Origin: Bacteroidota bacterium
GTDB lineage: Bacteria; Bacteroidota; Bacteroidia; UKL13-3
NCBI GenBank assembly: GCA_034439655.1
Contig: JAWXAU010000159.1
Coordinates: 22,526-86,525, forward strand
Direction: 5' to 3'
Length of the DNA stretch: 64,000 nt
This document shows positions 1,123 through 42,160 of the stretch, one piece after another (position 1 is the first letter of the stretch; every line of letters starts with the position of its first letter). The position numbers and the translations under genes were made by a program. The notes beneath the pieces are model-generated. The model had not been told where the DNA came from. It saw only the letters and a list, made by a program, of their open reading frames with translations, and did no database searches.

Positions 1123-1604
1123 TGCAAAGATCAAAACATTCAGCTTTCAAAACTATAATACTCTCTGCGGTTATTATTTTCTTTTCTTCATTTGTATATG
1201 ATAATAAAGCAGAGGTGGACCTTTTATGGAAAGCAGAGATTATGCCTGCTTGTACACTAAAAAAAGGTGACACGGCATGGGTGGTACTGCAAACAGATAT
1301 TCCCAAAGGATACCATTCTTATTCGAATGAAAATACGTCAGATGATGGTCCCATTCTCACTCAGCTCAACTTTGAAAAGAAGAAAAAATATAAACTTATA
1401 GGTAAAGATATTATAGAAGGGGAAAAAGAAGTAGTGTATGAAGAAGTGTTCAAAGCTAAGTTTACCAAGGTGAAAGGGCACATGGTGGTGAAACGAAAAT
1501 TTAAAGTAACTAGTAAAACCATCAAATTTAAAGTAATGACACAAATATGCGACGAAAATGTATGTATACTAAAAGAAAAAGATTTTGAGTTAAAAATATA
1601 TTAA
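1122..1604 (+). CDS. hypothetical secreted protein (N-terminal signal/TM; Cys-containing; possibly DsbD-associated)
   Basis: ATG overlaps the stop of the upstream gene by 1 nt. Hydrophobic N-terminus TIILSAVIIFFSSFVY. Lys-rich. Lies immediately upstream of dsbD. Confidence 0.35.
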   Translation: MQRSKHSAFKTIILSAVIIFFSSFVYDNKAEVDLLWKAEIMPACTLKKGDTAWVVLQTDIPKGYHSYSNENTSDDGPILTQLNFEKKKKYKLIGKDIIEGEKEVVYEEVFKAKFTKVKGHMVVKRKFKVTSKTIKFKVMTQICDENVCILKEKDFELKIY

Positions 1605-1616
1605 TAGAAATTATAA

Positions 1617-3695
1617 ATGAAAAAAATGAAGTATATATATATATTATTATTTAGTTTAATATTTAATGCTAGTTTTGCTCAAGAAAAAGTGCAACCCATA
1701 AAATGGAGTTTTGAAATTAGCCCATTTAAATTAAAGATTGGCGAAGAAGCTACAATTATATTTACGGGAACTGTGCCTTCAACCCAAACTATATATACTT
1801 CCGACGACCCACTTTATCCCTGTTTCGCTGAATATAAAACAATGGATGGGTTTAGCTTGCTGGGAAATCTTATTACATTGGGTAAACCAGAAAAACATTA
1901 TGATGACCTTTTTGGTAGTGATAGAATCTTCTTTAAAGGTAAATTACAATGCAAACAAAAAATTAAAATCACAAAAAACATAGTAAAGATTTCTGGTTCA
2001 ATTGATGGCCAAACTTGTTCTGATGCCAGTTGTACACAAACAAAATCTTCGTTTAATATACCAATTTCTGTATTGGCTGCAACAACAACTATTATTATAG
2101 ATTCGCCAAAAAATATTGACACCGCCTCTCAAACTATTATAGAAAAGAAAACTGATACGATTCATAAAACTGATGAAATAAAAGTTGCAACACCCACCAA
2201 TAAAACTCCCGATGACGACCTTTTGGGTTTCATATTACAAGCCTTAGCGGTTGGATTTTTGGCCATCTTCACGCCTTGTGTATTCCCAATGTTACCTATG
2301 ACGGTTTCTTTCTTTATACGCAGTGCTGCAAAGGATGAAGAGGAAAAGAAAAAAGCAAAACGCAGAGGTATTCGTAGTGCATTATTATTCGGACTATTTG
2401 TAATAGTTATATATACAATTCCTGGGGCATTGATATCGGGAACCAAAGGGCCTGAGTTTAATAATTGGCTCAGCACACATTGGTTGCCCAATATATTTTT
2501 CTTCTTAGTATTTATGGTTTTTGGGTTCTCATTTTTGGGGTGGTTCGAAATTATACTACCGAGCAGATTTGTAAACAAAATGGACAGTAAATCGAGCAAG
2601 GATTCTTTAGGAGGCTTGTTTTTTATGGCATTCACTTTGGTATTGGTTTCTTTCTCTTGTACTGGACCATTTGTGGGAAGTTTATTGGTAGAGGCGTCAA
2701 CAGGACATATATTAAAACCTGTAATGGGAATGTTCTTTTTCTCGTTAGCTATTGCTTTGCCATTTGTATTATTTGCGATATTCCCAAATATGCTACATAG
2801 CCTTCCCAAATCAGGTGGATGGCTTAATGCGGTGAAGGTTTCATTTGGATTTTTTGAAATAGCCTTTGCATTCAAATTCCTTTCAATTCCAGACCAAACA
2901 TATCATTGGGGTATCTTAAGTCGCGATATATTCTTTGCTATATGGATAGTCGTATTTTTATTATGGGGATTATATCTTTTGGGTAAAATTAAATTACCGC
3001 ACGATAGTGATATGAACCATATCGGAGTTCCACGCTTGTTATTGGCTATTATAGTTTTATCATTCACTGTTTATATGATACCAGGCATGTGGGGTGCACC
3101 AGTCAAATTACTATCGGGCATTACGCCACCATTGCAATATCAGGAGTTTGATATTAATGCAGGTAGAACAAATAATACTGCTAGCACAGATCCAAATGAT
3201 ATTGACATGAGCAAAGTTAAATATGGAAACTTGCATAAAATGCCAAATGGACTCAAAGGCTTTTTCGATTTTAAAGAAGCTAGTGAATACAGCAAAAAAG
3301 TAGGCAAACCCATGCTCATAGATTTTACCGGTAATGCCTGTACAAACTGTCGTAAAATGGAAGAGTATGTTTGGGTAAAACCTGAAGTATTGACTCGTAT
3401 GAAAGAGAATTTTGTATTGGCATCATTATATGTTGATGATAGACACAAGCTGCCCGAGAACGAATGGTATACCAGCAAAAGGGATGGTGAAGTAAAGAGA
3501 ACATTGGGTGACCAATTGAGTGATTTTCAAATTACCAATTACAAAACCTCAAGTCAACCACAATATATTATAACGGACGCGGAAGGTAATAATCTATTAG
3601 GTAGTGAAACTACAACTTATGATTCAGACGAACAAATCTATATTACATTCCTAGATAAAGGTTTAGCAGCATACAAAGCTAAATTTAAGAAATAG
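1617..3695 (+). CDS. dsbD: thiol:disulfide interchange protein DsbD (protein-disulfide reductase)
   Basis: Signal peptide. Periplasmic N-domain with Cys pairs. Multi-TM core with TPCVFPMLP motif (CcdA/DsbD family). C-terminal thioredoxin-like domain with GNACTNCRKMEE (CxxC). Confidence 0.8.
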   Translation: MKKMKYIYILLFSLIFNASFAQEKVQPIKWSFEISPFKLKIGEEATIIFTGTVPSTQTIYTSDDPLYPCFAEYKTMDGFSLLGNLITLGKPEKHYDDLFGSDRIFFKGKLQCKQKIKITKNIVKISGSIDGQTCSDASCTQTKSSFNIPISVLAATTTIIIDSPKNIDTASQTIIEKKTDTIHKTDEIKVATPTNKTPDDDLLGFILQALAVGFLAIFTPCVFPMLPMTVSFFIRSAAKDEEEKKKAKRRGIRSALLFGLFVIVIYTIPGALISGTKGPEFNNWLSTHWLPNIFFFLVFMVFGFSFLGWFEIILPSRFVNKMDSKSSKDSLGGLFFMAFTLVLVSFSCTGPFVGSLLVEASTGHILKPVMGMFFFSLAIALPFVLFAIFPNMLHSLPKSGGWLNAVKVSFGFFEIAFAFKFLSIPDQTYHWGILSRDIFFAIWIVVFLLWGLYLLGKIKLPHDSDMNHIGVPRLLLAIIVLSFTVYMIPGMWGAPVKLLSGITPPLQYQEFDINAGRTNNTASTDPNDIDMSKVKYGNLHKMPNGLKGFFDFKEASEYSKKVGKPMLIDFTGNACTNCRKMEEYVWVKPEVLTRMKENFVLASLYVDDRHKLPENEWYTSKRDGEVKRTLGDQLSDFQITNYKTSSQPQYIITDAEGNNLLGSETTTYDSDEQIYITFLDKGLAAYKAKFKK

Positions 3696-3725
3696 TTAAT
3701 GTGGCAGCACTATAATTGCTTCCTT

Positions 3726-5228
3726 ATGAATAAACATTTCTGCTATATTATTATCGTATTCTCCTTGCTGCAAGCTTGCCGCACGGATATAAAGGGTACT
3801 AAAAATAACAATAAAGCACCTCGTACATTTTTGGTATGCGATACCATAGCCCGTAGTGGTAATAACAGGCTTTCTTCCACAGTACAACTACAATGGTGGG
3901 GCGATGATGCAGATGGATATATTTCTCACTATAAATATTCGTTTGATGGTATAAATTGGTTAACTACCAAAATACAAGACTCTGTTTTTAATTTACAAAT
4001 ACCTCCAGGTAAAGATACTTTTGATTTTAAATTTATAGTAAAAGCAGTGGACAATATGGGCTTGGAAGACCCTGTAGGTGCATCACTAGGCGTGCCAGTA
4101 AAAAACTCTTCACCCAATATAGATTTTATCATTCCTACCGGTAGTGCTGGCTCTTCTACCCGAAACCCTATTAAAACATTCCCTGTCCTCAAATATTATT
4201 GGCAAACCAATGACCCTGATGGTGCAGCAGATGTAGACCATATAGAACTATATTTAAATGATACGAATAGTATGCCTGTAAATGTGCCTGCTAATTTTAA
4301 TGAGGTGACTTTAGTGGCTAAAAACCCCACTCAAATAACGAGTGATTGTAATATATTACAAGGAAGCAATCAGACTTTGTCAGCAAGTGTACTTAAAGGT
4401 ATGGTGCTAGATGCAAGCAATGTATTATATATTCGTTCAGTTGATAAAGTAGGAGCAAAATCATTATATAAACCATCGCAAAATATATTTGTGAAAAAAG
4501 TACATGGGTCTGTTTTATTGGTCAATGGAATGCTGAGTAGTAGCGGCAAAATAAGCTCACAACAATTTTATGAAACAGCATTAAAAAACATGAATCTATT
4601 AAGCTATGATACTTTATTGAGCAACGATATTCAAAATAATAATTATACCGAACTGGCTCCTGACAATCAAACGCAAGCCCTGATATTCGGACTTTTCCCA
4701 CATATTATATGGTTCACCGATGATGCAAATACCGCTCTCAATTTTGCAAAGAAAACACTTCCCACATTTTTCTCAAATAACGGAACATTACTTATGAGTG
4801 TGGCTTTTAATTCTTCGTTTGATACCACAGCAAATTTTCTAGACTTCACACCTGCAAGTCAACTCGTATATATGCCACAAGGTCAAACATACCGACTTAA
4901 CAATAGTGCGAATATAGACCCAGTAAGTAGTGGCTGGCCCAATTTAGTAAGTAGTTCGCCTCCCTTTGTTTGCCGACCTATATATAAACTAGATAACAAT
5001 CAAAATTACAATTACGAATATTTATATAATGCACACATCATTATATCGGGTAGTGTGAACAAGACATGGCAGCAGGCAGACAGTACGAATGTGATGATAA
5101 AACGTATAAAAACCAGTACTAACAAAACAGATTTTATCATTACATCTGTGCCCCTTGAAAAAGTAAACGGCAATAGCAATATTCAACAATTTATGGATAA
5201 AGCACTCAAAACGGAATTGGGATTTTAA
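3726..5228 (+). CDS. hypothetical lipoprotein (about 500 aa, unknown function)
   Basis: MNKHFCYIIIVFSLLQAC lipoprotein-type signal with lipobox-like LQAC. The ORF could also start at 3699. No recognisable catalytic motif. Confidence 0.45.
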   Translation: MNKHFCYIIIVFSLLQACRTDIKGTKNNNKAPRTFLVCDTIARSGNNRLSSTVQLQWWGDDADGYISHYKYSFDGINWLTTKIQDSVFNLQIPPGKDTFDFKFIVKAVDNMGLEDPVGASLGVPVKNSSPNIDFIIPTGSAGSSTRNPIKTFPVLKYYWQTNDPDGAADVDHIELYLNDTNSMPVNVPANFNEVTLVAKNPTQITSDCNILQGSNQTLSASVLKGMVLDASNVLYIRSVDKVGAKSLYKPSQNIFVKKVHGSVLLVNGMLSSSGKISSQQFYETALKNMNLLSYDTLLSNDIQNNNYTELAPDNQTQALIFGLFPHIIWFTDDANTALNFAKKTLPTFFSNNGTLLMSVAFNSSFDTTANFLDFTPASQLVYMPQGQTYRLNNSANIDPVSSGWPNLVSSSPPFVCRPIYKLDNNQNYNYEYLYNAHIIISGSVNKTWQQADSTNVMIKRIKTSTNKTDFIITSVPLEKVNGNSNIQQFMDKALKTELGF

Positions 5229-5240
5229 ATATATAATAGT

Positions 5241-5516
5241 ATGAACGAAGACTTAGACCCCTTAGAAATGGATGTGCTCAATTGCCTATATTTTGTAGAG
5301 CCCTTCCAAACTATATTAGAAGAAACTGGTTTGAGCCCAGCAATAGCGGGAGATGTATTGAAAACACTTATTGCCAAAAAATGGGTAAGCCCGATGAAGT
5401 TTGATGAGAAGGAACAAGAATATATTCGTAGTTTTATATATGATACCGACCACATGCACGATTATCGATATATGGCCACCAAAGAAGGGTTGATGAAACA
5501 TAATGGACTCGAATAA
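5241..5516 (+). CDS. hypothetical small protein (91 aa)
   Basis: ORF only. Located between convergent genes. Confidence 0.25.
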   Translation: MNEDLDPLEMDVLNCLYFVEPFQTILEETGLSPAIAGDVLKTLIAKKWVSPMKFDEKEQEYIRSFIYDTDHMHDYRYMATKEGLMKHNGLE

Positions 5517-7019
5517 CTACAAGTTTTTTAATCTATTGTAGTCAATTTTTGTATGATGTCGTGGGTCTTTGGGTAATGAATCAAGTTTTCTTGTTTCAAT
5601 ATTACCTAAACCAAGTTTACTTAATTCAGAAGTAAAAAACGCCTTATCAAAATCAGCACTAGGCACAAAAAATATAATTGGAATATTATTGATTTGTATA
5701 ATAGTTCCTTCTTTAATTCCTGATATATTTTTTAAAGTATATTCAAGAATAAATGGGAATACGTAGGTGTTATGGTATACAAATGATTCTTTGCAACGAC
5801 CTAGTAAATAAAGTACGCCGTCATTGCCTAGCCTTCCCGCATCACCTGTACGATGCCACAAACCCGAGTTGGTTTTAATTTTATTATTGAGTTGGTCTTT
5901 TGCTAAACCTAAATAATTTTCTAAGACATGTTTCCCTTTTACAACAATTTCTCCAAACTGTCCAACGGAACATTGTATGTTTTCCCATTCATTGCCACTA
6001 TATTCATGGTAAGTATCTGGCAAAAATTGTATAATACATAATTCTGTTTGTGCATCGGGAATACCGACAGGCAGACCATTTTCTAATGTGTAATATTGAA
6101 GTTTATTTGCATCAATGTGGCTAATAGGTTCCGCTTCGGTACTTCCATATACTATCATATTTTTGGCATCTGGAAAAGTATATACTATATCTTTTGCTAC
6201 ATCAGGGAATACAGGCCCACCACCAGTTACCAAATGCTTTACTGTATAATTTTGGAATTTGTTCTCAACTCCATATTTCCCTAAAGATGCAGTATAATAT
6301 GGAGATGCTACAATACTTTCTATGTAGTACCTTTCTATATCGCTATATATATTCTCTGGTATAAATGTTTTAGGTTTAGATGTTTTAAAACTCGGTATAA
6401 CTGTGGTTTTTCCATGTCCCAAATTAAGCATCGTAACAATAGGCAAGGTGCATAATTCTGTAAAGTTTTCACTCCCAGCTATTAAATGTTCGAGTGCATT
6501 AAACTGCTCAAACAAAAAACCATGTGTGCGATTGGCAGCCTTCGGTATACCTGTACTTCCACTCGTAAGCGTAATTAATGCAGAAACGTTTTCCTCCATC
6601 TCAACAGGTAGATGATTATATATATTAGTTTGCTTAGTAATAAATACTTTAAGAGGGATTGTTCTCAAATCCTTATTGAACCATGCAAACAACGTAGCTT
6701 TCCAACCCCCTGCAAACCCTTTGCAGTCAATCATTCTGCAACATTGGCTAATACGCTCTTTGTTGGCCCATTCATCAATAAATACAGCTACAGAACCATT
6801 ATAGAAAATAGCAAGTAGCATAATATATAAGTCTATGCTCATCGGAATATAGACCAAGACTTTATCGCCTTTTAATATATTCTTTTCTTGCAAATATGCT
6901 ACTTGTTGTAATACTTTTACTTTTAATTGTGCATAGGTAATTTCCATTCCCTTATGAATCAGTGCGACTTTGTCGGGATACTGCTCTGCCGCTTCCAGAA
7001 AGAGATTAACGATATTCAT
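5517..7019 (-). CDS. AMP-dependent synthetase/ligase (acyl/aryl-CoA ligase family, ANL superfamily)
   Basis: AMP-binding motifs TLTSGSTGIPKA (TSGSTGxPK) and YGSTEAE (YGxTE). C-terminal GKIDYNRL-like lysine motif. 500 aa. Confidence 0.8.
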   Translation of the reverse strand: MNIVNLFLEAAEQYPDKVALIHKGMEITYAQLKVKVLQQVAYLQEKNILKGDKVLVYIPMSIDLYIMLLAIFYNGSVAVFIDEWANKERISQCCRMIDCKGFAGGWKATLFAWFNKDLRTIPLKVFITKQTNIYNHLPVEMEENVSALITLTSGSTGIPKAANRTHGFLFEQFNALEHLIAGSENFTELCTLPIVTMLNLGHGKTTVIPSFKTSKPKTFIPENIYSDIERYYIESIVASPYYTASLGKYGVENKFQNYTVKHLVTGGGPVFPDVAKDIVYTFPDAKNMIVYGSTEAEPISHIDANKLQYYTLENGLPVGIPDAQTELCIIQFLPDTYHEYSGNEWENIQCSVGQFGEIVVKGKHVLENYLGLAKDQLNNKIKTNSGLWHRTGDAGRLGNDGVLYLLGRCKESFVYHNTYVFPFILEYTLKNISGIKEGTIIQINNIPIIFFVPSADFDKAFFTSELSKLGLGNIETRKLDSLPKDPRHHTKIDYNRLKNL

Positions 7020-7022
7020 TGT

Positions 7023-8027
7023 TTATAGTGCTTTACCAAATAAGGTATAGTGTCTAAAATCATTACCTGAAAACTTCGCTGATACATTCACGGATTTATT
7101 TTGCACGTGCATAAAAGCATGGTATAATTTTGTAATATGATTTTGGGATGCGTATTGCACAATCATATCACAAAGCAATTGAGTAATTCCAGCATATTTT
7201 CTTGCAGGATTCCTAGCCAATGTTTTTATTATAATACTTTGCTTACTTGCATCAAATAAATCTGGAATTGCAAATATAAATCCTGCTAATTTACCTGTCA
7301 CTGTGTCTTCTGCCAGAATAATCAAATCAGGATTGAGAATTGGCATTAGCAGTAAATACAGGTTTAAGAAATCTTTTGATGAGATAGGCGTATACAGAAA
7401 ATTATGAACAAAAACCTCGCTACACAAATCATATAACAGTAGTAATTCTTTCTCCAAATTGTTCATATCAATTGAACGGATATTTATTTGCTGTTGATCA
7501 AATCTTTCTTTTAAATATAAGTATTTTCCGAACGCCAAATCGGTATCGACTTGAGATAGGTAATGTGAAATTGCTCCAAACCCATTTGCTTCGAACTGCT
7601 GCGAGTAATAATGTTGATGAAGGTTTTCAGTAAAAAATAGTGGGTTTGTTTGACTATCTATAAATCGATAAGCTTTCCAAGTGCTTCCATTCATTGGGCC
7701 AATAATATAAGTATAGTCCTTTTCTTTGGCAATTTCAAATGCTGAATTTAATAATGTTTTTGCAGCTTCATGTTTGTCAATGCATTCATAATTACCTATT
7801 GCAATCGCAGATGTATTATTATATAATAAATCTTTGTTTTCATATAATGCCAAACGTCCGCAAGGCATATCCTCTTCCATTAGTAATAAACAAGTTGCTA
7901 TGCCTGCTAGGGCAAATTGATTTTTAAAACGCTGCGACCTATCACCATACAAATCAAAAGGGAAATTTATAAAATCCTCATACTTTGCATGAAGCTCATT
8001 TACCACAATCGTATGATACTTTTCCAT
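7023..8027 (-). CDS. hypothetical protein, GNAT-like (putative N-acyltransferase) fold
   Basis: C-terminal KTLARNPARKYAGITQLL resembles GNAT motif A (R/Q-x-x-G-x-A/G). 334 aa. Tightly packed between the AMP-ligase and the membrane protein. Confidence 0.3.
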   Translation of the reverse strand: MEKYHTIVVNELHAKYEDFINFPFDLYGDRSQRFKNQFALAGIATCLLLMEEDMPCGRLALYENKDLLYNNTSAIAIGNYECIDKHEAAKTLLNSAFEIAKEKDYTYIIGPMNGSTWKAYRFIDSQTNPLFFTENLHQHYYSQQFEANGFGAISHYLSQVDTDLAFGKYLYLKERFDQQQINIRSIDMNNLEKELLLLYDLCSEVFVHNFLYTPISSKDFLNLYLLLMPILNPDLIILAEDTVTGKLAGFIFAIPDLFDASKQSIIIKTLARNPARKYAGITQLLCDMIVQYASQNHITKLYHAFMHVQNKSVNVSAKFSGNDFRHYTLFGKAL

Positions 8028-8028
8028 C

Positions 8029-8724
8029 TTATACTTGTATATTAAACATCCATAAATAATTTACCGCAATGCAAGCAAGGGGAATAAAGAAATTATCAGA
8101 GCCTTTGCTGGCTAACAGTTCCGTGACGGCGGTGATAACTGACATTAACAAAACAAAAGTATATATATTTCCAAGAATAGGTGCATGGAGAAAATGGGCC
8201 AATAAACTTGTTACTATAGCAGCTACTATAATAAAACCCACAAATCCCGAGAGAGATTTTTTGTCGCCAAAGATGTACATAATTCCTATTGGGAAACCTC
8301 TACCACAGAGAGCCGCAGCAGGGTCGGCCAATGCCATAACCAATACCGGTTGATAGAACCAAAAATAACTCTGGAGGCCTGTATGTCCTCGCATAAAATC
8401 GTAAAATAAAAAACTCATGTATACTGCCACTGGATATAAAATACTCCCATGAGATTTGCGGTCTATAGCATTAATAGAACGAAGCAAATTAAATTTCAAA
8501 CTTACCACTAACAGGATAACAAATGATGAACAAATACCCAATACCCACCAATGTGAGCTGAATAATATAGGGAACAGCATGGTGAGTAAACCTGAACCTA
8601 TATGTACCACTTTCCGTGAATGCTCACCTTGTACTTTCAATTTATGATACAATACTTCTGCCGTTGCAAATAAAACGATATATGCTCCCGATAATATAAT
8701 ATAATGTAGTAAATCAGTATTCAT
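8029..8724 (-). CDS. CTP-transferase-family (CdsA/dolichol-kinase/phytol-kinase-like) integral membrane protein
   Basis: Multi-TM. ALADPAAALCGRGFPIG...GDKKSLSGFVGFI resembles the C-terminal DxxAxxxGxxxG...K..S..G signature of PF01148 but lacks the canonical CdsA SPxKTxEG. 4-bp overlap with the upstream DUF3419 gene. Confidence 0.45.
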   Translation of the reverse strand: MNTDLLHYIILSGAYIVLFATAEVLYHKLKVQGEHSRKVVHIGSGLLTMLFPILFSSHWWVLGICSSFVILLVVSLKFNLLRSINAIDRKSHGSILYPVAVYMSFLFYDFMRGHTGLQSYFWFYQPVLVMALADPAAALCGRGFPIGIMYIFGDKKSLSGFVGFIIVAAIVTSLLAHFLHAPILGNIYTFVLLMSVITAVTELLASKGSDNFFIPLACIAVNYLWMFNIQV

Positions 8725-9803
8725 ATTTTTTGATCAACTATATATTGATTGTAAAAAAAGCATTTATCAATGCTATGTAGTTTGTTGGAGAGTTCCTTTT
8801 GAAAAGCAAACTGCGTAGGATAACTTTCTGACAAACGCCTTGGCACCATCAGGTTCCAATAGGCTACACGGGCATTTGGGTTGGAATAGGTAGAAATAAT
8901 ATCTGCGTTTTCTCTCATTTGCCCTTCGCTCATGTATTCAAATATATCCGACAAGTTAAACCCATCAAATTTTCCGTAGGTGCTTAAAATTTCTTCTGCT
9001 GTTCCCTGTACAAATTTTATATTCTTTATATTAGCTCTTACTTTCTTCAAGTTTTCGGGTAATAGATATTGGGGCAATTGCGGACTAAATTTACCTGTAA
9101 ATATATATGATAAGTACTCATTATTTTGGCAAGAAACCGACATCAAATGTTCGTCAGCCCGTTGGTATATAAATTCACCTACATTGAGCTTTACATGTTT
9201 CATGAATTCAGGGGAACGGCCTGCATTACCCATTACCTTCTTGCTATAGAACAACTTGAAAAGCAGTTTCCACCGCCATGAATTCCATTTGTAATTATAA
9301 AATTTTGCTTGTTCTATTTCTGCTTTTTTGTCTAGTAATTTCTTAGTAGTTCCTTTCGAATGAATAAAGGGTAATACCCATTTGCGAAACAAAGAAAAAT
9401 ATTTTTCGAATTTTCCCGCATGTATAATACCTTTTTCTATATCGCCCAGATGCTGGTCAAAATATTTTTTAGCGTCACTATGCAATTCAAGTCTGAAAGA
9501 TTTATATATCTTTACTCTTTGGCTACTGTCCGTAAATCCCAAGAATGCCAATAACTCATCGTCCTCAAGCTGAGTGATAGCAAGCTTTTTCAACTCGCAT
9601 AAATATAATTGGATGGGGTTCAAATCTCCAGCAACTATAAGTTCCGGATTTAAGGTGAGTAGCGAAAAACTATTATCGCCCGCTGATGCAATAGAGAATA
9701 TCTTCCCCCCTTGTGCGGTTTTTAATCCTTCTAATAATACAGATGAATCTTCCCAACAATTGGCATATCTTATAATATCAAAATTGGTATTTTTGAATTG
9801 CAT
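8721..9803 (-). CDS. DUF3419 / BtaA-like protein (SAM:diacylglycerol 3-amino-3-carboxypropyl transferase-like)
   Basis: N-terminal IRYANCWEDSSVL...IFSIASAGDNSFSLL matches the conserved A-x-CWED start of BtaA/DUF3419 family proteins. 360 aa. Confidence 0.6.
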   Translation of the reverse strand: MQFKNTNFDIIRYANCWEDSSVLLEGLKTAQGGKIFSIASAGDNSFSLLTLNPELIVAGDLNPIQLYLCELKKLAITQLEDDELLAFLGFTDSSQRVKIYKSFRLELHSDAKKYFDQHLGDIEKGIIHAGKFEKYFSLFRKWVLPFIHSKGTTKKLLDKKAEIEQAKFYNYKWNSWRWKLLFKLFYSKKVMGNAGRSPEFMKHVKLNVGEFIYQRADEHLMSVSCQNNEYLSYIFTGKFSPQLPQYLLPENLKKVRANIKNIKFVQGTAEEILSTYGKFDGFNLSDIFEYMSEGQMRENADIISTYSNPNARVAYWNLMVPRRLSESYPTQFAFQKELSNKLHSIDKCFFYNQYIVDQKI

Positions 9804-9807
9804 GGTA

Positions 9808-12396
9808 TTATATAGTTTCTAAAATTTTTATATTTCCTGTCGAACCATCCATCTCCACCCAGTCTCCTGTTTTCAATCTTTGCAATAGTCCTGAAATACC
9901 CACCACACATGGTATCCCCATCTCGCGTGAGACAATAGCTGAGTGGCTGAGCAAACTTCCACGTTCCACCAAAATGCCTGAAGCAGTTGGAAATAATGAT
10001 ACCCAGCCTGGGTCGGTGCTGCTGGTTACCAATATATCTCCATCTAATCCTTCGGCTTCGGAAGGGTGTGTCAATACCCGTACTTTTGCTTTTACAACAC
10101 CTGCACAGCAAGGAATTCCCTTTAAGTCTCCTTCCAAAATTTGCATATTTTTTTCTGCAGCCATTTTGTTGCCTGCATATAAAGGTCCATAACTTTTTAT
10201 CCTTTCTGCTGGATTCATCTTTTCAAAATCGAGATACATTTGTTTGCGAAGTAAAACTAAATCTTTCAAATTACTATGCACGAATGTTCCCTTAATGGCT
10301 CCGAAAATTTCAATTTGTGTTAGATAAAAAATATCAGCAGCGTTTTCCAATAAATGTTCTGCATAGAACTTATTCCCTATCTCCGTAAAAATATTCCTCA
10401 CCATGGCAAAACCTCTGGTCCTTTCGTAGCGAAGGTTTTCACGATTGCTCACTAGATACCGTGCTTTGCCCATGATATAATTGAAGAAGAATTTTTTAAT
10501 GGGTTTATTTTTTAACTTATTATATATAAACAACTCCGCTTCTTTCCTCACTTTGGGTTCTGTATGCACACCTCTAATACTTTCTGCTTTCAAATATCCT
10601 TTTAATATTTGGATATACATTTCTGGTTTTTGACGGTACGTAATTGTTTCCAATTTAAGTTCGCCCACCGTTCTATCTCCCCAACGATCCAAATATTTAT
10701 CTATTTTTTGCTTGAGTTCAAAATACTTTTCATCATGAAGCATTCTCCATATTTTCAGATTGTCCTTTTCCTCAAATAAAGTTTTATATAATATATTTTG
10801 TTTAATAAAGGAGACAAGTTCAAGCCCCATCATAACAGGCTCCACAGAAACAATATCGCCTGATCCTGCCATCAAATCATTATGTAAATTGCTATGTTCA
10901 TCACCAGATATTTTCACCACCAATTTTTGCAAGAGTCCGAAATATATCATACAAAAAAAGTCATTGGTAAGTGGTGCTTTCCATTTTTTCACCAAGGTAT
11001 CTTCAAACTCTAGATAATCATTCATCAATTCATCAGGTCTGCGTTGTGAGAAATCTATCTGTTTATATGTGGTAATAACCTTATTGAAATGTTCTAAGAA
11101 TTCTCTTCGTTGCTTGTCTACCGTAAACAAATTATATAATACAAATCGAATAGCACGCAACACATCCATATAATCACGTAATCCTGCTCGCTTAGGCTCT
11201 TCCGTATTAAATGATTCCTTAACACCCATCATTTTCTCCATGAACTTGGCATTGATGGAAAAGCCAGGCAATAGTGCCAAGGCATTATACCAATTATTCA
11301 AATTATAATATACACGTCCATATATATGTCCCAGCATATTGGCATATACTTCTCCATTGGCTGCAATCACAGAGGGACGAATACCCATGATGGCACTGAA
11401 TTGCCGGTACACACTATCATACATTTTCGCAATAAATGAAAAAGTTAGTGGCAGGGTGAAACCCGGGTATGATTCTATAATATTACTATTGTCCCAAATG
11501 GTGGATTTTGCTCCTGAATCAGGCACGTGCACATGGCTAGTAATAGGACGAGCCTGCAATAAGTATAATATATTGTTTTTATAAGCAAATTCTATATCTT
11601 GGTATTTGTGAAAATACTTATATAATGTATTTAATACTTCTGCTACTTCATAAATTTGTGCATCGCTCAAAGAAGCCTGATTTTGCTTGCCTTCGGGTAC
11701 TGCTACTATTTTTACTCCTGATTTATTCTCAATATCAAAAACCAACATTTCAGTTTTTACTGCAATCTGTTTTTCTATATTGTTTTCTTTGACAGTAAAT
11801 GTATCTGCTAATAATTCTCCCGATACCAAACCTTCACCCAACCCATATAAAGTACTAATCGTTTTCACAGTTCTATTTCCGTCCAATGGGTTGATACCAA
11901 AGCCCACCCCAGCGACATCTGCATCAATCATTTCTTGTATAATTATAGATACAGGGACAATTCTACTTTCACCTGCATTATATACTTTTACCCTAAGTGC
12001 GTATGCCGATTTCCACACTTTTTTAATGGCATTATATATTTCATTGAAGGGAACATATAGTAAAGTTTCATACTGTCCTGCAAAAGATTTATCTCCAGTA
12101 TCTTCTGCAATTCCCGATGATCTTACTGCAAAATATTTAGATTCGTCTACTCCAAAATATGCTTTTAAAGAACTTAGCAGTGCATCATCAAATATATAAT
12201 TGTCAATGATAGTTTCTGGCTTTTCGTTAGGATTGCTTTCAATTTCGTAAATAATAATCGCTGCGGGAACTACTGCATAGTCGGGTACTCTGAGTCCTAT
12301 ACTTTGCAAATGAAATAAATTCCAAGCTTTCATACCAGTGATTTGTTCATCACCGCTTTGTATTTTATAATCTTTAGAAAAAATAATTTGTTTCAT
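9808..12396 (-). CDS. PEP-utilising phosphotransferase, PEP-synthase / rifampin-phosphotransferase-like architecture (PPDK_N ATP-grasp + C-terminal His swivel domain)
   Basis: N-terminal GMKAWNLFHLQSIGLRVPDYAVVP (PEP/pyruvate-binding domain, GxKAxNL). C-terminal GSLLSHSAIVSREMGIPCVVG (PEP-utilisers mobile His domain). 862 aa, as in RPH-family enzymes. Confidence 0.75.
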   Translation of the reverse strand: MKQIIFSKDYKIQSGDEQITGMKAWNLFHLQSIGLRVPDYAVVPAAIIIYEIESNPNEKPETIIDNYIFDDALLSSLKAYFGVDESKYFAVRSSGIAEDTGDKSFAGQYETLLYVPFNEIYNAIKKVWKSAYALRVKVYNAGESRIVPVSIIIQEMIDADVAGVGFGINPLDGNRTVKTISTLYGLGEGLVSGELLADTFTVKENNIEKQIAVKTEMLVFDIENKSGVKIVAVPEGKQNQASLSDAQIYEVAEVLNTLYKYFHKYQDIEFAYKNNILYLLQARPITSHVHVPDSGAKSTIWDNSNIIESYPGFTLPLTFSFIAKMYDSVYRQFSAIMGIRPSVIAANGEVYANMLGHIYGRVYYNLNNWYNALALLPGFSINAKFMEKMMGVKESFNTEEPKRAGLRDYMDVLRAIRFVLYNLFTVDKQRREFLEHFNKVITTYKQIDFSQRRPDELMNDYLEFEDTLVKKWKAPLTNDFFCMIYFGLLQKLVVKISGDEHSNLHNDLMAGSGDIVSVEPVMMGLELVSFIKQNILYKTLFEEKDNLKIWRMLHDEKYFELKQKIDKYLDRWGDRTVGELKLETITYRQKPEMYIQILKGYLKAESIRGVHTEPKVRKEAELFIYNKLKNKPIKKFFFNYIMGKARYLVSNRENLRYERTRGFAMVRNIFTEIGNKFYAEHLLENAADIFYLTQIEIFGAIKGTFVHSNLKDLVLLRKQMYLDFEKMNPAERIKSYGPLYAGNKMAAEKNMQILEGDLKGIPCCAGVVKAKVRVLTHPSEAEGLDGDILVTSSTDPGWVSLFPTASGILVERGSLLSHSAIVSREMGIPCVVGISGLLQRLKTGDWVEMDGSTGNIKILETI

Positions 12397-12402
12397 AATA
12401 GA

Positions 12403-13329
12403 TTATATAAGATTGCCAATCATGGGGCCTGCACCTAAAATTAAATACATACAGATGCTCCAAATTCCTGAAGATAATTCAATTTGCTTGGCATATTTTG
12501 TTTGCATATTGCTCCTGAACATCAATGCGGGTATACAACATACCACAAACAATACAGCCAATATAATATATGGACCCACATTATAATTTGCATAATAACA
12601 AGCACCCATTGCCAGCATCATAGTTCCCAATAGACACAATATCCAATATATGGGAGCAGCTTTATGACCCATTAGATTGGTATAAGAAACAACACCAGGT
12701 TCTTCCTTATCTGGAGTTTTTATTTTGCGACCTATCTCCAATACAATTCCATTCATAAACGAAACCAAAAAGAAAAATATCAAACCCTTGGGAGCAGAAG
12801 CTCCCGCCAGGAACCAATCGTAGCCGCTTGCGTACACATCGACCAAAGGTATAATAAGCATGTGCGATACCACATACCAAAATTGTCTTTTTCGCAACCA
12901 TTCTACTATAAAGAATTCTTTCAACATTAACATCATATATAGCATCGCTACTAAATACAATATAATCATATTGGGGTAGGTAAATATTTGCACGAGTATT
13001 TGCAAACCTGCTACACAAAAACCTATATATTTTAGTTCGTTTAAAGATATAATACCACGGGGAACTGGCAAATAACTTCTATATAATTTATCTTCTTCAG
13101 CATCCTTATGTTCATCGCAAATTCGCAATAATAAAAACAAGGTAATGGTATTAAATATACAAACCAGATAAGGCTCCCATGCTATGAAACCATCGGCTCC
13201 ACGGCAAATTCGAGAATACGATATGGCAGAAAAACTAAATGCTGCGATGAGCAAACCGTGTGTTGCAAACGGAAATCTTTCTTTTTGATATATATAAAAT
13301 CGTTTGATGAATGAATCCATAATATACAA
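12403..13329 (-). CDS. UbiA-family-like integral membrane prenyltransferase (putative)
   Basis: About 8 predicted TM segments. Asp-rich motif RICDEHKDAEEDK (DxxxDxxxD) after TM2 as in UbiA-superfamily enzymes. 308 aa. Confidence 0.4.
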   Translation of the reverse strand: MYIMDSFIKRFYIYQKERFPFATHGLLIAAFSFSAISYSRICRGADGFIAWEPYLVCIFNTITLFLLLRICDEHKDAEEDKLYRSYLPVPRGIISLNELKYIGFCVAGLQILVQIFTYPNMIILYLVAMLYMMLMLKEFFIVEWLRKRQFWYVVSHMLIIPLVDVYASGYDWFLAGASAPKGLIFFFLVSFMNGIVLEIGRKIKTPDKEEPGVVSYTNLMGHKAAPIYWILCLLGTMMLAMGACYYANYNVGPYIILAVLFVVCCIPALMFRSNMQTKYAKQIELSSGIWSICMYLILGAGPMIGNLI

Positions 13330-13373
13330 TTAAGTTTGTTTGAATTATTATATATAATTTCTACCTCCGCGGA

Positions 13374-14648
13374 TTATTTTTTTCTTCCGAATATTTTATG
13401 TGCTTTCGAAAAATTACCAGACGCCATTGCTGCGGCAATAGATAGTTCGCCACAGAGCACGGTTGCACCGCATATTTCTGCAAACTTTCGTGCCGAACCA
13501 GGCCCCACACAATCCAATAAATTTAAACATTCGCGTTGGGTGGGTAATCCAGTTCCGCCACCCACCGTACCCACCATCAAACTGGGCAAAGTAACTGCTA
13601 AATATAAATCGCCATTGCCCACAACTTCCATCCTAGTAACACCCACAAAAGCTTCCGATACACATGCTACATCTTGCCCGCAAGCCATAAATATAGCAGT
13701 TAATCCATTGGCAAAATGCCCTTGAATGCCGATGCTTCCGCTCAATACCGATGCTACTGAAGAAGTTTGCCAATATATAGCAATATCTTCGGGCGTGGAA
13801 CCCAATACTTCTTTTACCACCTGCCGCGTTATTTGTGCTTCGGCAGTTACTTTTTTTCCACGCACGGACGAAAATGAAACTGCGGTAGCTTTTTTATCGC
13901 CTGCATAATTACTTTCAATATACCATTGCTTTGGTTTTATGGGCAAGTGTTCTATTATATAATGACATACAGCATCAGTACATATCGTCACCATATTTTG
14001 TCCTGCGGCATCGCCAGTTGTATAATCAAAAATCATCACAGCTTGGTTGCCTTCCATATTCAATCTGAAATCTTCCAGTTTTGCATGATTGCTATGTTTA
14101 CTTACAATTTCGCGAAATACTTCAATTTTATCCAGAACCCAAAACATAAAGGTACCCAATTCGCTCAATGAATTAAATCGAAAAACAGGAGCTCTTTGAA
14201 CAGCTTCGGTAAGGCAAACCGAGGTTATACCTCCGCATAGCCGTGATGCTTTTGCACCTCTGTTATACGATGCCACCAACGCCCCTTCACTAGTAGCCAT
14301 TGGCACATAGAAATCGCCCTGTGCAAGCGTGCCGCTTATATGGAGTGGCCCCATAATTCCAGTTGGTATTTGGGTCATTCCTATATAATTTTCTATATTG
14401 CCCCGCAAAGATTCTGTGTCTTCAAATTTTGATACCCCGGTTAAAAAGGGCAACTCCATGTTCTTTTCCTTTTTTATAAAATCTAAACGATGCTCCCAAG
14501 CTTCCTTACTCCAAGAAATAGGACCCGGAATGGAAGGGCTGATACCTGAACTTTCTCGCAACTTCAAGTCTTCGAGTACTTGCTCGAAAGGCTTGATACG
14601 GGTAAATAGTTCAATAAGTTTGCGTGCTTTTTCGCTGCTTGTCGACAT
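13374..14648 (-). CDS. hydroxymethylglutaryl-CoA reductase (class I, NADPH), mevalonate pathway
   Basis: ENYIGMTQIPTGIMGPLHISG, GDAAGQNMVT and VGTVGGGTGLPTQRECL match the conserved HMGR catalytic motifs (ENVIGxxxIPxGxAGPL, DAMGMN, GTVGGGT). Confidence 0.9.
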   Translation of the reverse strand: MSTSSEKARKLIELFTRIKPFEQVLEDLKLRESSGISPSIPGPISWSKEAWEHRLDFIKKEKNMELPFLTGVSKFEDTESLRGNIENYIGMTQIPTGIMGPLHISGTLAQGDFYVPMATSEGALVASYNRGAKASRLCGGITSVCLTEAVQRAPVFRFNSLSELGTFMFWVLDKIEVFREIVSKHSNHAKLEDFRLNMEGNQAVMIFDYTTGDAAGQNMVTICTDAVCHYIIEHLPIKPKQWYIESNYAGDKKATAVSFSSVRGKKVTAEAQITRQVVKEVLGSTPEDIAIYWQTSSVASVLSGSIGIQGHFANGLTAIFMACGQDVACVSEAFVGVTRMEVVGNGDLYLAVTLPSLMVGTVGGGTGLPTQRECLNLLDCVGPGSARKFAEICGATVLCGELSIAAAMASGNFSKAHKIFGRKK

Positions 14649-14773
14649 AAATTGTTAATTATTAAAGATTGACAAAGATATGTTTACAATTGGTAATACA
14701 AAATCTGATTTATCGTAAAGTACAACCAAGAATTGTATAAACCATTAAGAAGTTAAGGGGCATTAAGCATATT

Positions 14774-14945
14774 TATACCAATTCTTAAACTAAAATAGTT
14801 CTCCGCCTGTGGCGGATTTGGTTTTTAGAATGGTAATGCCGAACTACATCCCGAAAGCCCCGCTTAATCCCGATAATTATCGGGATGCGGGGGGTTTAGC
14901 CCCTTTCTTTTCGACTATTATATATTGAGTTTCGGTATTACTTAA
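14774..14945. repeat. interspersed repeat element, copy A (long form with internal CCCGATAATTATCGGG palindrome)
   Basis: Shares tataccaattcttaaactaaaatagttctccgcctgtggcggattt...tagaatggtaatgccgaactaca...ctttcttttcgactattatatattgagtttcggtatta with copies at 25924, 41858 (reverse complement) and 52124. Confidence 0.8.
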
Positions 14946-15017
14946 TATTCTTAACTCTTTCCCGCCGCGGCTGGAATATTATGTTTTGTGCTGTAAAGAG
15001 AATTGTAAAAAGGTCTA

Positions 15018-15980
15018 TTATATAATACCCTCCCTATTCAAATCATGAATATGCAAAAGGCCGACGTACTTCCCTGAATCGGTGACTAGAAGTTGCGAAA
15101 TTTTATATTCTCTCACTAGCTCCAAAGCCTCGGTAGCCATAGCATTTTTTTCTATTTGCTTGGGAGCAGTATTCATCAAATTCGTAGCCGTAGTGCCAGC
15201 CAAATTATCAGTTTTTTCTATCAATCGACGCAAGTCCCCATCGGTTATAATACCGCATATCTTATCACCATTAATTACCGCAGTTGCACCTAACCGCCCA
15301 CTACTTATGGAATATATAACTTCTTTTAAAGGTGAATCAGGATTTACAATTGGTTTTTCTGATGATATAATATCACCAACTTTCATATATAATTTTTTGC
15401 CCAAAGCACCGCCTGGGTGAAACTTGGCAAAATCTTCAGGACCAAAATTTCTGCATGATAATAATGCAACTGCAAGTGCGTCACCCATCACCAATTGAGC
15501 CGTGGTACTGCTTGTGGGGGCAAGGTTATTGGGACATGCCTCGGTGCTTATGGTGCAATTCAATAACATATCAGCATGTGTGGCCAAGTAAGAATTTGTA
15601 TTGCCCACCATCGCTATCAATTTATTGCCTGCTCTTTTCAATAATGGGGTGAGTACTTTTATTTCGGAAGTCTCCCCACTTTTACTAATTGCTATTATAA
15701 TATCATCTTGTTGCAAAGTTCCCAAATCTCCGTGCACGGCATCGGCGGCATGCATAAATACGGAGGGCGTTCCCGTACTGTTGAGCGTAGCTACAATTTT
15801 TTGCCCGATAATGGCACTTTTGCCAATGCCCGTAACCACTACTCTTCCCGTGCTTTGTATAATACATTGTACCGCATCTGCAAAACCAGAATCTATATGT
15901 TGTTCCAAAGCCAATATCTCCGCAGCTTCGGTACGAATAGTTTGTTTGGCATTGTCAATGATTTCTTGGGGTGAGAGCAT
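15018..15980 (-). CDS. kpsF: arabinose-5-phosphate isomerase KpsF/GutQ (SIS + tandem CBS domains)
   Basis: GIGKSAIIGQKIVATLNSTGTPSVFMHAADAVHGDLG (SIS). C-terminal CBS pair. Start set at MLSPQEII (ATG at 15980, complement). The track ORF to 16139 is an upstream extension. Confidence 0.85.
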   Translation of the reverse strand: MLSPQEIIDNAKQTIRTEAAEILALEQHIDSGFADAVQCIIQSTGRVVVTGIGKSAIIGQKIVATLNSTGTPSVFMHAADAVHGDLGTLQQDDIIIAISKSGETSEIKVLTPLLKRAGNKLIAMVGNTNSYLATHADMLLNCTISTEACPNNLAPTSSTTAQLVMGDALAVALLSCRNFGPEDFAKFHPGGALGKKLYMKVGDIISSEKPIVNPDSPLKEVIYSISSGRLGATAVINGDKICGIITDGDLRRLIEKTDNLAGTTATNLMNTAPKQIEKNAMATEALELVREYKISQLLVTDSGKYVGLLHIHDLNREGII

Positions 15981-16281
15981 GGGCTTTTTGTTTGGAATTT
16001 GTGGTGCAAATATATGGGGGAGTTTGCAGTTTTTGGTAGACAGTTGTGACCCTGAACGTTCCCGAAAGTATTCGGGAGACAGGTGTAGTTTAGTGTACCT
16101 GAATAAAAATGAATATATAATACTTACTAAAACTATCACTTAGTAATACTGATTATATATATAAAAGTGACGAAAAATACCCAGACATAAAAAGTATTTA
16201 TGTGATTTGGATATTTGGGAAATAGGGATACCATTGAAACGACATTTATAAGACAAATAAGTAAGTTAGCTGTAATTTGAT

Positions 16282-16966: not shown

Positions 16967-17227
16967 GTGAAAAAAATTATGGCACGAAACACCTGTGTTT
17001 CTTTGGGTAATTATTTTGAAACCTTTGTTGATAGCAGCGTTTCAGAAGGTAGATTTAAAAATGCCAGTGAAGTTATTAAAGCTGGTTTAAGATTATTGGA
17101 AGAAGAAGAAAATAAAATTAGGACACTTAAAATTGCCATAAACGAAGGAATTGAAAGTGGCATTGCTGAAGACTTCAATCCCAAACTTCATCTTAAATCT
17201 TTAAAAGCCAAAAGGAAAAATGGCTGA
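16967..17227 (+). CDS. parD: type II antitoxin ParD (RHH/CopG-like)
   Basis: VSLGNYFETFVDSSVSEGRFKNASEVIKAGLRLLEEEENK is a typical ParD sequence. Stop overlaps the start of the downstream toxin by 8 nt. Confidence 0.8.
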   Translation: MKKIMARNTCVSLGNYFETFVDSSVSEGRFKNASEVIKAGLRLLEEEENKIRTLKIAINEGIESGIAEDFNPKLHLKSLKAKRKNG

Positions 17228-17519
17228 GTATAAACTTACTAAAAAAGCTGTTGAAGATTTATCTAAAATTTGGGACTACACATATAGAGCTTGGTCTGAA
17301 AATCAGGCAGACAAATATTATTGTCAACTCCTTGAAGTTTGTCAAGAATTAGTTGAGAATCACAATTTGGGCAGCAATTATAACGACATTGGAAATGAAG
17401 TTTTGGGCTGCAAATCTCGCGAACATATAATTTTTTACAGAATTCTTAATAATAAAGTAATTGAAATTACTAGATTTCTTCACATAAGAATAGATTTGAA
17501 AAACAGGATTCAAGAATAA
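17220..17519 (+). CDS. parE: type II toxin ParE/RelE family
   Basis: 99 aa. YKLTKKAVEDLSKIWDYT...IIFYRILNNKVIEITRFLH matches ParE toxins. Translationally coupled to parD. Confidence 0.8.
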   Translation: MAEYKLTKKAVEDLSKIWDYTYRAWSENQADKYYCQLLEVCQELVENHNLGSNYNDIGNEVLGCKSREHIIFYRILNNKVIEITRFLHIRIDLKNRIQE

Positions 17520-21592: not shown

Positions 21593-21596
21593 CACA

Positions 21597-42025: not shown

Positions 42026-42160
42026 TATATAACAGGTATATCAAAACAAAGAAAACATTCTTATTGCATAAAAACTTGGTGAAATTAAATGTTGATCTCG
42101 CTTTTTTGTTATCATATATATATATATCACTATATTTGTAGTAATTATAATAAAAATTTA

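Follow-up and report, generated by a model that had tools for sequence, protein, structure and literature searches.

A 64,000-nucleotide stretch of a metagenome-assembled Bacteroidota genome (lineage UKL13-3; contig JAWXAU010000159.1 of assembly GCA_034439655.1), referred to here as the window, carries an operon of seven minus-strand genes headed by a gene for class-I HMG-CoA reductase (HMGR; HMG, 3-hydroxy-3-methylglutaryl). On balance, this operon probably encodes a self-contained, mobile pathway for an undescribed membrane-associated amphiphile that is lipid-like, N-acylated and derived in part from S-adenosylmethionine (SAM), and that contains an isoprenoid or mevalonate unit. We infer this product, and the order of the steps leading to it, from the gene linkage, gene fusions, predicted folds and intact motifs that were observed. 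As judged by family assignment, the operon is an undescribed combination of known enzyme types. Full-text searching of the literature gave no account of the cluster, and the neighbourhoods of UbiA and HMGR mentioned in the Lipocone paper are different from it. The initial annotation of the window had proposed that this is not a known gene set, and the set was indeed found to be unlike those for diacylglyceryl trimethylhomoserine (DGTS), phytol salvage, archaeal ether lipids, Streptomyces meroterpenoids and fungal siderophores.

Organization, conservation and spread of the operon

The initial annotation had placed seven tightly packed open reading frames (ORFs) on the minus strand, and all seven were present at exactly the positions it claimed (Table 1). 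The gene order in its title was wrong; the true order is HMGR, a UbiA-like membrane protein, a PPDK-like phosphotransferase (Rph-like below), a DUF3419 protein, a CTP-transferase-like membrane protein (kinase-like below), a GNAT-like protein with two tandem domains and an ANL-superfamily ligase. Along this order the spacings are 44, 6, 4, −4 (an overlap), 1 and 3 bp.

The cluster-specific tandem GNAT was used as the probe in a scan of 185,579 genomes, one per species, and relatives were found in 342 of them. The best 80 of these loci were all from Bacteroidota, including Dyadobacter, Parapedobacter, Sphingobacterium, Chitinophagaceae, Saprospiraceae and Fluviicola, among others. Counts per gene were limited to species-representative loci with enough sequence at the position concerned. 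All seven genes were collinear in 43 of 51 such loci, and the individual genes were present at their positions in 48/57 (HMGR), 57/60 (UbiA-like), 58/61 (Rph-like), 66/67 (DUF3419), 69/71 (kinase-like) and 67/67 (ANL). The flanking genes vary by lineage, kpsF, which lies upstream in the window, being kept in only 2 of 85 loci. The test was also run in reverse from HMGR, and the three nearest sampled homologues on long contigs (64–70 % identity) all head the same cluster. The earlier proposal of a single operon-like unit is thus supported by co-oriented, abutting genes that remain collinear, and the genes are strongly syntenic elsewhere, in species of at least three phyla, Bacteroidota included.

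Outside Bacteroidota, three kinds of carrier showed the same gene order: high-GC lineages (51–65 % GC), Brevibacillus laterosporus and the alphaproteobacterium Roseinatronobacter sp. S2, which has the set on a 137-kb plasmid. A permuted order was seen once, in locus L003. HMGR travels with the set both into Brevibacillus and onto the Roseinatronobacter plasmid, where it spans the origin of the record and is hence missing from the gene table that PLSDB distributes. The RefSeq names for the Roseinatronobacter set are generic, two members being named 'hypothetical protein'. Transposases lie beside the cluster in two loci (L001 and L089). At the level of sequence comparison, this distribution shows that the set is inherited and transferred as a unit and is horizontally mobile.

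Three natural fusions join members of the set, namely GNAT with the ANL ligase (P0306), DUF3419 with the tandem GNAT (P0390) and the membrane kinase-like protein with GNAT (P0399). These fusions are the strongest evidence that the DUF3419, kinase-like, GNAT and ANL proteins would act together at the membrane.

Several accessory genes were inserted in or beside the cluster. A CdsA-like cytidylyltransferase (PF01148, 145 bits) together with a CDP-alcohol phosphatidyltransferase was present in 10 loci, about one in eight, at no fewer than three positions, and the CdsA signature was present in the accessory gene of L018 and L028. A SRPBCC/START-like gene lies between GNAT and ANL in 22 loci, and a fatty-acid desaturase was found in one locus. 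A P450 accompanies two distant versions: it follows ANL in Brevibacillus, and in one high-GC contig it stands with a sulfotransferase. Another high-GC contig, L090, has a gene for an EamA exporter after the cluster. The inserted genes point to lipid chemistry.

Further observations concern individual carriers and records. On the Roseinatronobacter plasmid (NZ_CP121116.1, L092/L093), genes for a WavE lipopolysaccharide-synthesis protein, two GT2 glycosyltransferases and a HAD phosphatase precede the cluster on the same strand (851–5029), and this version may be an extended, glycosylating form of the pathway. The Brevibacillus laterosporus replicon (NZ_CP011076.1, L091) is labelled a 'plasmid' of 1.38 Mb, with no more than 16 features annotated; it is probably part of the chromosome. 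The P450 gene there is translationally coupled. Just upstream of the cluster are genes for two FecCD iron-siderophore permeases and for an ABC exporter, and 2 kb downstream of it is an ETX/MTX2 toxin gene. Locus L054 is titled 'Hydrocarboniphaga daqingensis', the name of a gammaproteobacterium, but shows near-collinearity with two Bacteroidota loci, L053 and L068; this public MAG is probably taxonomically mislabelled. A mislabel is also probable for proteins P0025 and P0153, labelled Fimbriimonadaceae but Chitinophagales according to nr.

Table 1. Positions of the operon genes and of the upstream intergenic region in the window
Feature	Position	Strand	Basis
Class-I HMG-CoA reductase (HMGR), gene 1 of the operon	13374–14648	−	PF00368, 3e-115
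Divergent UbiA-superfamily membrane prenyltransferase, gene 2	12403–13329	−	Profile of 33 orthologues, first Asp-rich motif
Rph/PigC-like phosphotransferase (ATP-grasp and swivelling-His), gene 3	9808–12396	−	PF01326, 5e-51; PF00391, 9e-25
DUF3419 protein (BtaA superfamily), gene 4	8721–9803	−	PF11899, 1e-62
Phytol/dolichol-kinase-like integral-membrane protein of the CTP-transferase family, gene 5	8029–8724	−	PF01148, 25.7 bits
Tandem-GNAT acyltransferase, gene 6	7023–8027	−	AF2 model and Foldseek
ANL-superfamily adenylate-forming ligase, gene 7 (last)	5517–7019	−	PF00501, 1e-34
Intergenic region upstream of HMGR: terminator-like hairpin of kpsF, repeated structured element, putative promoter	14649–15017	−	Folding; reading by eye

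Family assignments and motifs of the seven proteins

The family assignments made initially for the seven proteins were all reproduced, by Pfam and NCBIfam scans and, for the GNAT, by an AlphaFold2 (AF2) model and Foldseek. No quinone, carotenoid or phospholipid equivalog model was reached in the NCBIfam scan.

HMGR scored 385.6 bits with PF00368, against a gathering score of 27. It is of class I, with 323 bits for the NADPH-type model TIGR00533 versus 39 for the class II model TIGR00532, and lies below the TIGR00533 equivalog cut-off (322.9 versus 441.8 bits). The best solved relative is the archaeal enzyme 6hr7 (1.6e-80), in comparison with which the catalytic and substrate motifs are intact: ENYIG (ENxIG), DAAGQN (DAxGxN), DKK, GQD, GTVGGGT and the C-terminal His. 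In a rough neighbour-joining tree of 15 sequences, built without bootstrap, the Bacteroidota cluster HMGRs formed one clade and the non-Bacteroidota cluster HMGRs a sister clade that includes an 'orphan' HMGR of Vibrio. The latter, from Vibrio fluvialis (L096, NZ_AP028132.1 51558–52820), is 62.5 % identical to that of L090 and 57.8 % to that of Brevibacillus. The other six cluster genes were not found near it, and it may be a remnant of the cassette. An Alteromonas plasmid has an HMGR whose neighbours include an AMP-binding protein and a 'thermostable hemolysin'. The idea that these form a homologous mini-cluster was rejected (BLASTP E 0.009, hhalign probability 0.1). On a Sinorhizobium meliloti plasmid a class-I HMGR (L098, CP140923.1 109720–110964) lies amid genes for an acyl-CoA carboxylase beta subunit, biotin carboxylase, a biotin carrier and MmgE/PrpD. 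This setting, which recurs on several Sinorhizobium plasmids, is one of CoA-ester catabolism or carboxylation and is non-isoprenoid.

The UbiA-like protein has 308 aa as listed, from a TTG at 13329, but the ATG at 13320 (MDSFIKRF...), where the orthologue alignments begin, is the more likely start. It is divergent: the PF01040 score of 30.3 bits is under the gathering score of 34.2, although an unmarked match to this model is present in the orthologues from L001, L003 and L086. For a profile of 33 orthologues the best solved relative was digeranylgeranylglyceryl phosphate synthase (DGGGPS) 6m31 (E 4e-4), followed by chlorophyll synthase. The only NCBIfam matches were NF010118 (62 versus 443 bits) and NF009523 (19 bits). 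All 33 orthologues keep the first Asp-rich motif, D72-E73-xx-D76-xxx-D80, and LPVPRG without change, and these residues line up with the DGGGPS motif. MenA or UbiA of quinone synthesis was rejected as an identity for this protein, since no MenA/UbiA model and no quinone equivalog was matched, and on this point the initial annotation was correct.

The Rph-like protein (862 aa) consists of an ATP-grasp domain (PF01326) and a swivelling-His domain (PF00391) only, and homologues also carry PF27448 (Rph_4th). A phosphoenolpyruvate (PEP)/pyruvate TIM-barrel domain was absent, there being no PF02896 match in the Pfam scan. Its best matches among solved structures are two rifampin phosphotransferases, 5fbs and 5hv1 (3e-63), and the phospho-His motif LLSHSAIVSRE is present. 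Rph and PigC/RedH share with it the ATP-grasp, Rph_4th substrate and swivelling phospho-His architecture and the conserved His motif. However, its scores are far under the equivalog cut-offs for Rph (NF041857, 267.6 versus 999 bits), PigC (290 versus 1300 bits) and PEP synthase (TIGR01418, 206 versus 740 bits), and the context of the operon is one of lipid and isoprenoid functions rather than antibiotic resistance or pyrrole condensation.

The DUF3419 protein (360 aa) covers the whole PF11899 model with 213 bits and has a putative SAM-binding Rossmann-like N-terminus. The SAM-type motifs CWED, SAGxN and DxNPxQ in this region are common to it and to a 'BtaA family protein' of Chondrinema that adjoins a methyltransferase. 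No solved relative was found in sequence searches of the PDB with either the single sequence or a profile, and no methyltransferase (BtaB) was found in the operon by Pfam scan. The earlier description as BtaA-like holds at the level of the family but not beyond it, the identity to the methyltransferase-linked BtaA being only 27 %. A different DUF3419 subfamily was observed on a Rhizobium plasmid (L095, CP041205.1, about 98–104 kb), together with a ketoacyl-ACP synthase III, an oxidoreductase, an MBL hydrolase and an adenylate-forming 'CoF synthetase'.

The kinase-like protein (231 aa) is an integral membrane protein whose PF01148 score is just over the gathering score of 24, with no NCBIfam match. 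Invariant residues are R37, K38, H41, D134xxAAxxG141, K156...G160, E202, G208xD210 and P215, with N211 conserved in at least 90 %. These were compared with the motif set DxxAxxxG...K(T/S)xxG...GxDN(L/I)xxP, which we take to be that of the COG0170-type kinases DOLK and VTE5. The CdsA signature SPxKTxEG...GHGGxxDRxD is absent from the 231-aa protein, which was accordingly rejected as the CdsA of the genome. It had been described initially as a CTP-transferase-family protein without this signature, and it groups with phytol/dolichol-kinase-like proteins, homologues being labelled phytol kinase or dolichol kinase by JGI. The AF2 model (predicted local distance difference test, pLDDT, 92.4) had TmCdsA as its sole PDB relative by Foldseek, a marginal match (E 0.05, TM 0.36), and single-sequence and profile searches of the PDB found none. 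Outside Bacteroidota its counterpart is a longer membrane protein, of about 450 aa, whose N-terminal half corresponds to it (hhalign probability 99.5). The motifs point to a place for the 231-aa protein in the phytol/dolichol-kinase branch, as far as sequence can indicate.

The tandem GNAT (334 aa) had no Pfam match, and distant members of its family carry PF00583, PF13508 or PF01233. Its AF2 model (pLDDT 92.6) predicts two consecutive GNAT folds. Foldseek matches included 4zm6, 2wpw, 7q3a, 5kf1, MshD, Eis, FemX and L-PGS, with E-values of 2e-14 to 1e-8 and TM up to 0.68, the resemblance being to MshD, Eis, glucosamine N-acetyltransferase and FemX/L-PGS. An exhaustive profile search at E ≤1e-30 placed 1472 clusters at 50 % identity in this family. 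The ANL ligase (500 aa; PF00501, 120 bits) contains the core motifs A3, A5, A7, A8 and A10 (TSGSTGIPK, YGSTE, TGD, GRxKE and the C-terminal Lys). Its best NCBIfam match was the 'fatty acid CoA ligase family' NF006754 (276 bits versus a cut-off of 478), followed by OleC-type families, likewise under their cut-offs.

Proposed pathway and alternative explanations

In the proposed pathway, the kinase-like protein would phosphorylate an isoprenoid-type alcohol at the membrane using CTP, and the Rph-like enzyme would phosphorylate or activate a hydroxyl with ATP via a phospho-His intermediate. The UbiA-type enzyme would then move a prenyl group from a diphosphate donor to an acceptor, giving the lipid anchor. 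DUF3419 would install a SAM-derived head group, which by analogy with BtaA may be a 3-amino-3-carboxypropyl (homoserine-type) group on a hydroxyl. The ANL ligase would activate a carboxylic acid, and at the membrane the tandem GNAT would pass the acyl group to the amine of the head group. The mevalonate from HMGR would serve either as precursor of the isoprenoid moiety or as the acid for activation and transfer. The optional pair of CdsA and CDP-alcohol phosphatidyltransferase suggests that a derivative with a phosphodiester link may branch off. As the initial annotation proposed, the product may be a prenylated or aminoacylated lipid.

The simplest analogy for the head group is DGTS synthesis by BtaA and BtaB, in which a SAM-derived group is placed on a lipid alcohol; the operon likewise has a full-length PF11899 member with motifs held in common with a Bacteroidota BtaA. 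It differs from that system in its low identity to BtaA and in having no BtaB beside DUF3419, whereas in Chondrinema the pair is adjacent. Since the partners of DUF3419 are instead an acyl-activating and N-acyl-transferring pair, the amine would receive an acyl group instead of three methyl groups.

Several findings weigh against the proposed pathway. The second Asp-rich motif of UbiA enzymes (DxxxD) is replaced in the UbiA-like protein by the invariant residues N193...E198xxR201K202...E209, so this protein may not be a conventional prenyl-diphosphate transferase. The DUF3419 protein is only distantly related to the BtaA of Chondrinema (E 3e-18), and DUF3419 proteins recur beside acyl-activating enzymes outside betaine-lipid synthesis. 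The low identity and the occurrence in unrelated acyl clusters mean that aminocarboxypropyl transfer is not assured. Every NCBIfam equivalog scored below its cut-off. In two loci (L014 and L020), DUF3419, kinase-like, GNAT and ANL genes stand alone among housekeeping genes. The set therefore comprises two separable modules, one of HMGR with the UbiA-like and Rph-like enzymes and one of these four, and the products of the two modules may be separable as well.

The role of HMGR was considered separately. The initial annotation had read it as anchoring the operon through the committed mevalonate step, that is, as isoprenoid supply. A tblastn search with the Streptomyces cassette proteins (mvk, mvaD, pmk, fni and hmgs) and a motif scan found no match for mevalonate kinase, phosphomevalonate kinase, diphosphomevalonate decarboxylase, IDI-2 or HMG-CoA synthase in 99 loci of about 20 kb (1.64 Mb) or in the 64-kb window, while the same tblastn found HMGR in 63 of the 99 loci. 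Diphosphomevalonate decarboxylase was likewise not detected on the PLSDB replicons of the Brevibacillus and Roseinatronobacter hosts, a search that covered plasmid-labelled replicons and not the chromosomes. Polyprenyl-synthase genes were sought near the cluster, and none was found save one in the window, 31 kb from the operon. This polyprenyl diphosphate synthase (45752–46765, plus strand; PF00348, 1.6e-73; FARM motif LVHDDIMD) is the sole other isoprenoid gene in the window and is unlinked to the cluster in other genomes. With HMGR as the only linked enzyme of the mevalonate pathway, a role in isoprenoid supply is doubtful, and the earlier reading is weakened. As HMGR moves with the set across hosts, mevalonate may be used differently.

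A serious, though less probable, alternative is that mevalonate is a building block. HMGR would produce mevalonate, which the ANL ligase would turn into mevalonyl-AMP or mevalonyl-CoA; from there the tandem GNAT would transfer the mevalonyl group to an amine, with prenyl phosphates drawn from the host's own supply. The contrast in linkage between HMGR and the five other mevalonate enzymes argues for this, as does the movement of HMGR into Brevibacillus and onto the Roseinatronobacter plasmid with no diphosphomevalonate decarboxylase on the PLSDB replicons searched. Streptomyces meroterpenoid clusters also place a class-I HMGR inside a specialised biosynthetic cluster with a prenyl-handling step; however, these clusters, which need isoprenoid flux, carry the entire six-gene cassette mvk-mvaD-pmk-fni-hmgr-hmgs, whereas HMGR in the operon stands alone and is 36 % identical. 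The ANL gene directly adjoins HMGR in L003, and class-I HMGRs occur in the non-isoprenoid settings of the Sinorhizobium plasmids. A precedent is the fungal trio of HMGR, SidI (a mevalonyl-CoA ligase of the ANL type) and SidF (a two-domain GNAT), in which mevalonate serves as an acyl unit (PMC3709128, PMC11751504). The trio in the operon follows the same enzyme logic, with HMGR used in the absence of linked genes for the remaining pathway.

This likeness rests on enzyme logic and not on sequence, and SidF is not among the 50 of 333 Foldseek matches (E ≤0.001) listed for the tandem GNAT. The best matches of the ANL ligase are fatty-acyl and OleC-type ligases. Relative to the fungal fusarinine siderophore branch, with its SidI/SidH/SidF enzymes, the operon lacks the SidH enoyl-CoA hydratase, an ornithine hydroxylase and a non-ribosomal peptide synthetase, and it has four further obligatory partners, two of them integral membrane proteins. 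In 9 of 57 loci there is no HMGR in cis. Linkage was judged within the loci, so a lower mevalonate pathway may lie elsewhere in the host genomes, and genes of this pathway are present in many Bacteroidota (PMC6107057).

A more detailed version would be a new class of bacterial membrane lipid, in which an isoprenoid anchor would bear a homoserine-type head group derived from SAM, the ANL ligase and the tandem GNAT together attaching mevalonate, or another acid, to the amine of that group. HMGR would then be a dedicated, non-isoprenoid supplier of mevalonate, and the pathway would have spread horizontally among Bacteroidota, Bacillota and Pseudomonadota, leaving the Vibrio orphan HMGR as a remnant. 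Taken as a whole, this version is rather improbable.

Alternatively, HMGR could be a housekeeping enzyme ahead of a six-gene unit for prenol salvage, in which the kinase-like and Rph-like proteins would produce a prenyl diphosphate for the UbiA-like enzyme, as VTE5 and VTE6 do for tocopherol and chlorophyll synthesis in plants. We consider this unlikely. Phytol salvage in plants and cyanobacteria, in which VTE5 and VTE6 serve homogentisate phytyltransferase or chlorophyll synthase, likewise combines a prenol-kinase-like membrane protein with a UbiA-superfamily enzyme; the UbiA-like profile also touches chlorophyll synthase, and the second phosphotransferase of the operon could fill the part of VTE6. 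The loci lacking HMGR indicate that the rest can exist without it in cis, and a SRPBCC protein is often inserted. Against this, the position of HMGR is kept in three phyla and on a plasmid, and its three nearest homologues are all linked to the cluster. The operon has a Rph-type dikinase rather than VTE6/DUF92, has no aromatic-acceptor pathway, tocopherol cyclase or methyltransferase set, and has lost the second UbiA motif. Salvage would also leave DUF3419, GNAT and ANL unexplained, although these are the most tightly coupled members (66/67 and 67/67 loci for DUF3419 and ANL, and the fusions).

An archaeal-type ether phospholipid pathway would make the UbiA-like protein a DGGGPS and the CTP-transferase-like protein a CarS, with CDP-alcohol transferases adding head groups. 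DGGGPS is the best solved relative of the UbiA-like profile, the Roseinatronobacter orthologue weakly matches the DGGGPS models of NCBIfam, CarS belongs to the same superfamily as the kinase-like protein, and the pair of CdsA-like and CDP-alcohol phosphatidyltransferase genes in 10 loci would fit. These matches are weak (E 4e-4; 25 bits versus cut-offs near 300), however, and the membrane protein has no CdsA/CarS signature and resembles prenol kinases. No GGGPS/PcrB signature was found in a plausible gene in 90 loci, and no search was aimed at glycerol-1-phosphate dehydrogenase. Only a minority of loci have the CdsA-like gene, as an additional copy, and a pathway of this type has no role for HMGR alone, DUF3419, GNAT or ANL, so we regard it as very unlikely.

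ANL and GNAT together follow the logic of CoA-dependent acyl-homoserine-lactone and hydroxamate pathways. On this logic the product could be a soluble signal or chelator, for example of the N-acyl-homoserine or siderophore-like type, made by SAM-dependent and acyl-transfer chemistry. The fusion of DUF3419, as the putative SAM-dependent enzyme, to GNAT (P0390), the FecCD permeases and ABC exporter upstream of the cluster in Brevibacillus and the EamA exporter following it in L090 would agree with such a product. Yet the core members include two integral membrane enzymes, GNAT is fused to one membrane enzyme in P0399, no N-hydroxylase or LuxI-type enzyme is in the set, and the transporter neighbours are not conserved across loci, all of which makes a soluble product highly improbable. 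The probability of a chance juxtaposition of unrelated genes is negligible given the collinearity in 43 of 51 loci, the conservation across phyla, the fusions between members and the flanks that differ in every lineage.

Surroundings of the operon and significance

The gene upstream of the operon is kpsF (15018–16139; TIGR00393, 308 bits), separated from HMGR by 369 bp. This spacer contains a hairpin, TCCGCCACAGGCGGA, followed by a T-run, which is terminator-like, and folds far better than shuffled sequences (z = −3.77). No Rfam family, riboswitches included, matches the HMGR leader region. A Bacteroidetes-type −7 box, TAtcTTTG, was read by eye at 14680–14673, about 25 nt 5' of the HMGR ATG, with a TTTG 18 nt further upstream, and is the putative promoter of the operon.

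A structured element of about 175 nt occurs twice in the window with about 96 % identity, at about 14782–14955 (minus strand) and about 41865–42040 (plus strand). Each copy lies directly 5' of the next gene in the same orientation, HMGR in one case and the ORF 42089–42571 in the other. The element holds the palindrome CCCGATAATTATCGGG and a terminator-like hairpin and has no Rfam match. The palindrome, which also lies at 32044 and 48361, has four matches at ≤2 mismatches, versus 0.03 expected. The element could be REP/MITE-like, or a regulatory or terminator module. At the other end of the operon, a convergent 91-aa ORF (5241–5516, plus strand), with no Pfam or NCBIfam match, ends one base before the ANL stop codon, so there is no space for a terminator 3' of ANL.

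Base composition is not unusual, and the window is ordinary Bacteroidota chromosome, with type IX secretion cargo, PorZ, GldF/G-like ABC genes, KdtA and Ku/LigD. The Ku and multidomain LigD genes form a non-homologous end-joining pair at 20822–24089 (plus strand). A ParE toxin gene (17220–17519, plus strand) has an 86-aa ORF just upstream (16967–17227), and a giant ORF of more than 3877 aa (52367–64000, minus strand) runs past the end of the window.

Unidentified aminolipids are routinely listed in the descriptions of Bacteroidota strains. A seven-enzyme cassette that moves between phyla and has hundreds of carrier species in soil and fresh water would be a concrete genetic handle on such a lipid. 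The pathway would assign functions to DUF3419 proteins other than BtaA, to the Pfam-less tandem-GNAT family with its 1472 clusters and to Rph-like dikinases beyond antibiotic resistance, and it bears on the retention of class-I HMGR in bacteria without a linked mevalonate pathway. We know of no earlier bacterial parallel to the fungal SidI/SidF branch, and if mevalonate is indeed the acyl unit, the operon would be its first known bacterial counterpart. Cultured carriers are available in Dyadobacter, Parapedobacter, Sphingobacterium and Brevibacillus laterosporus, which makes the pathway directly testable.

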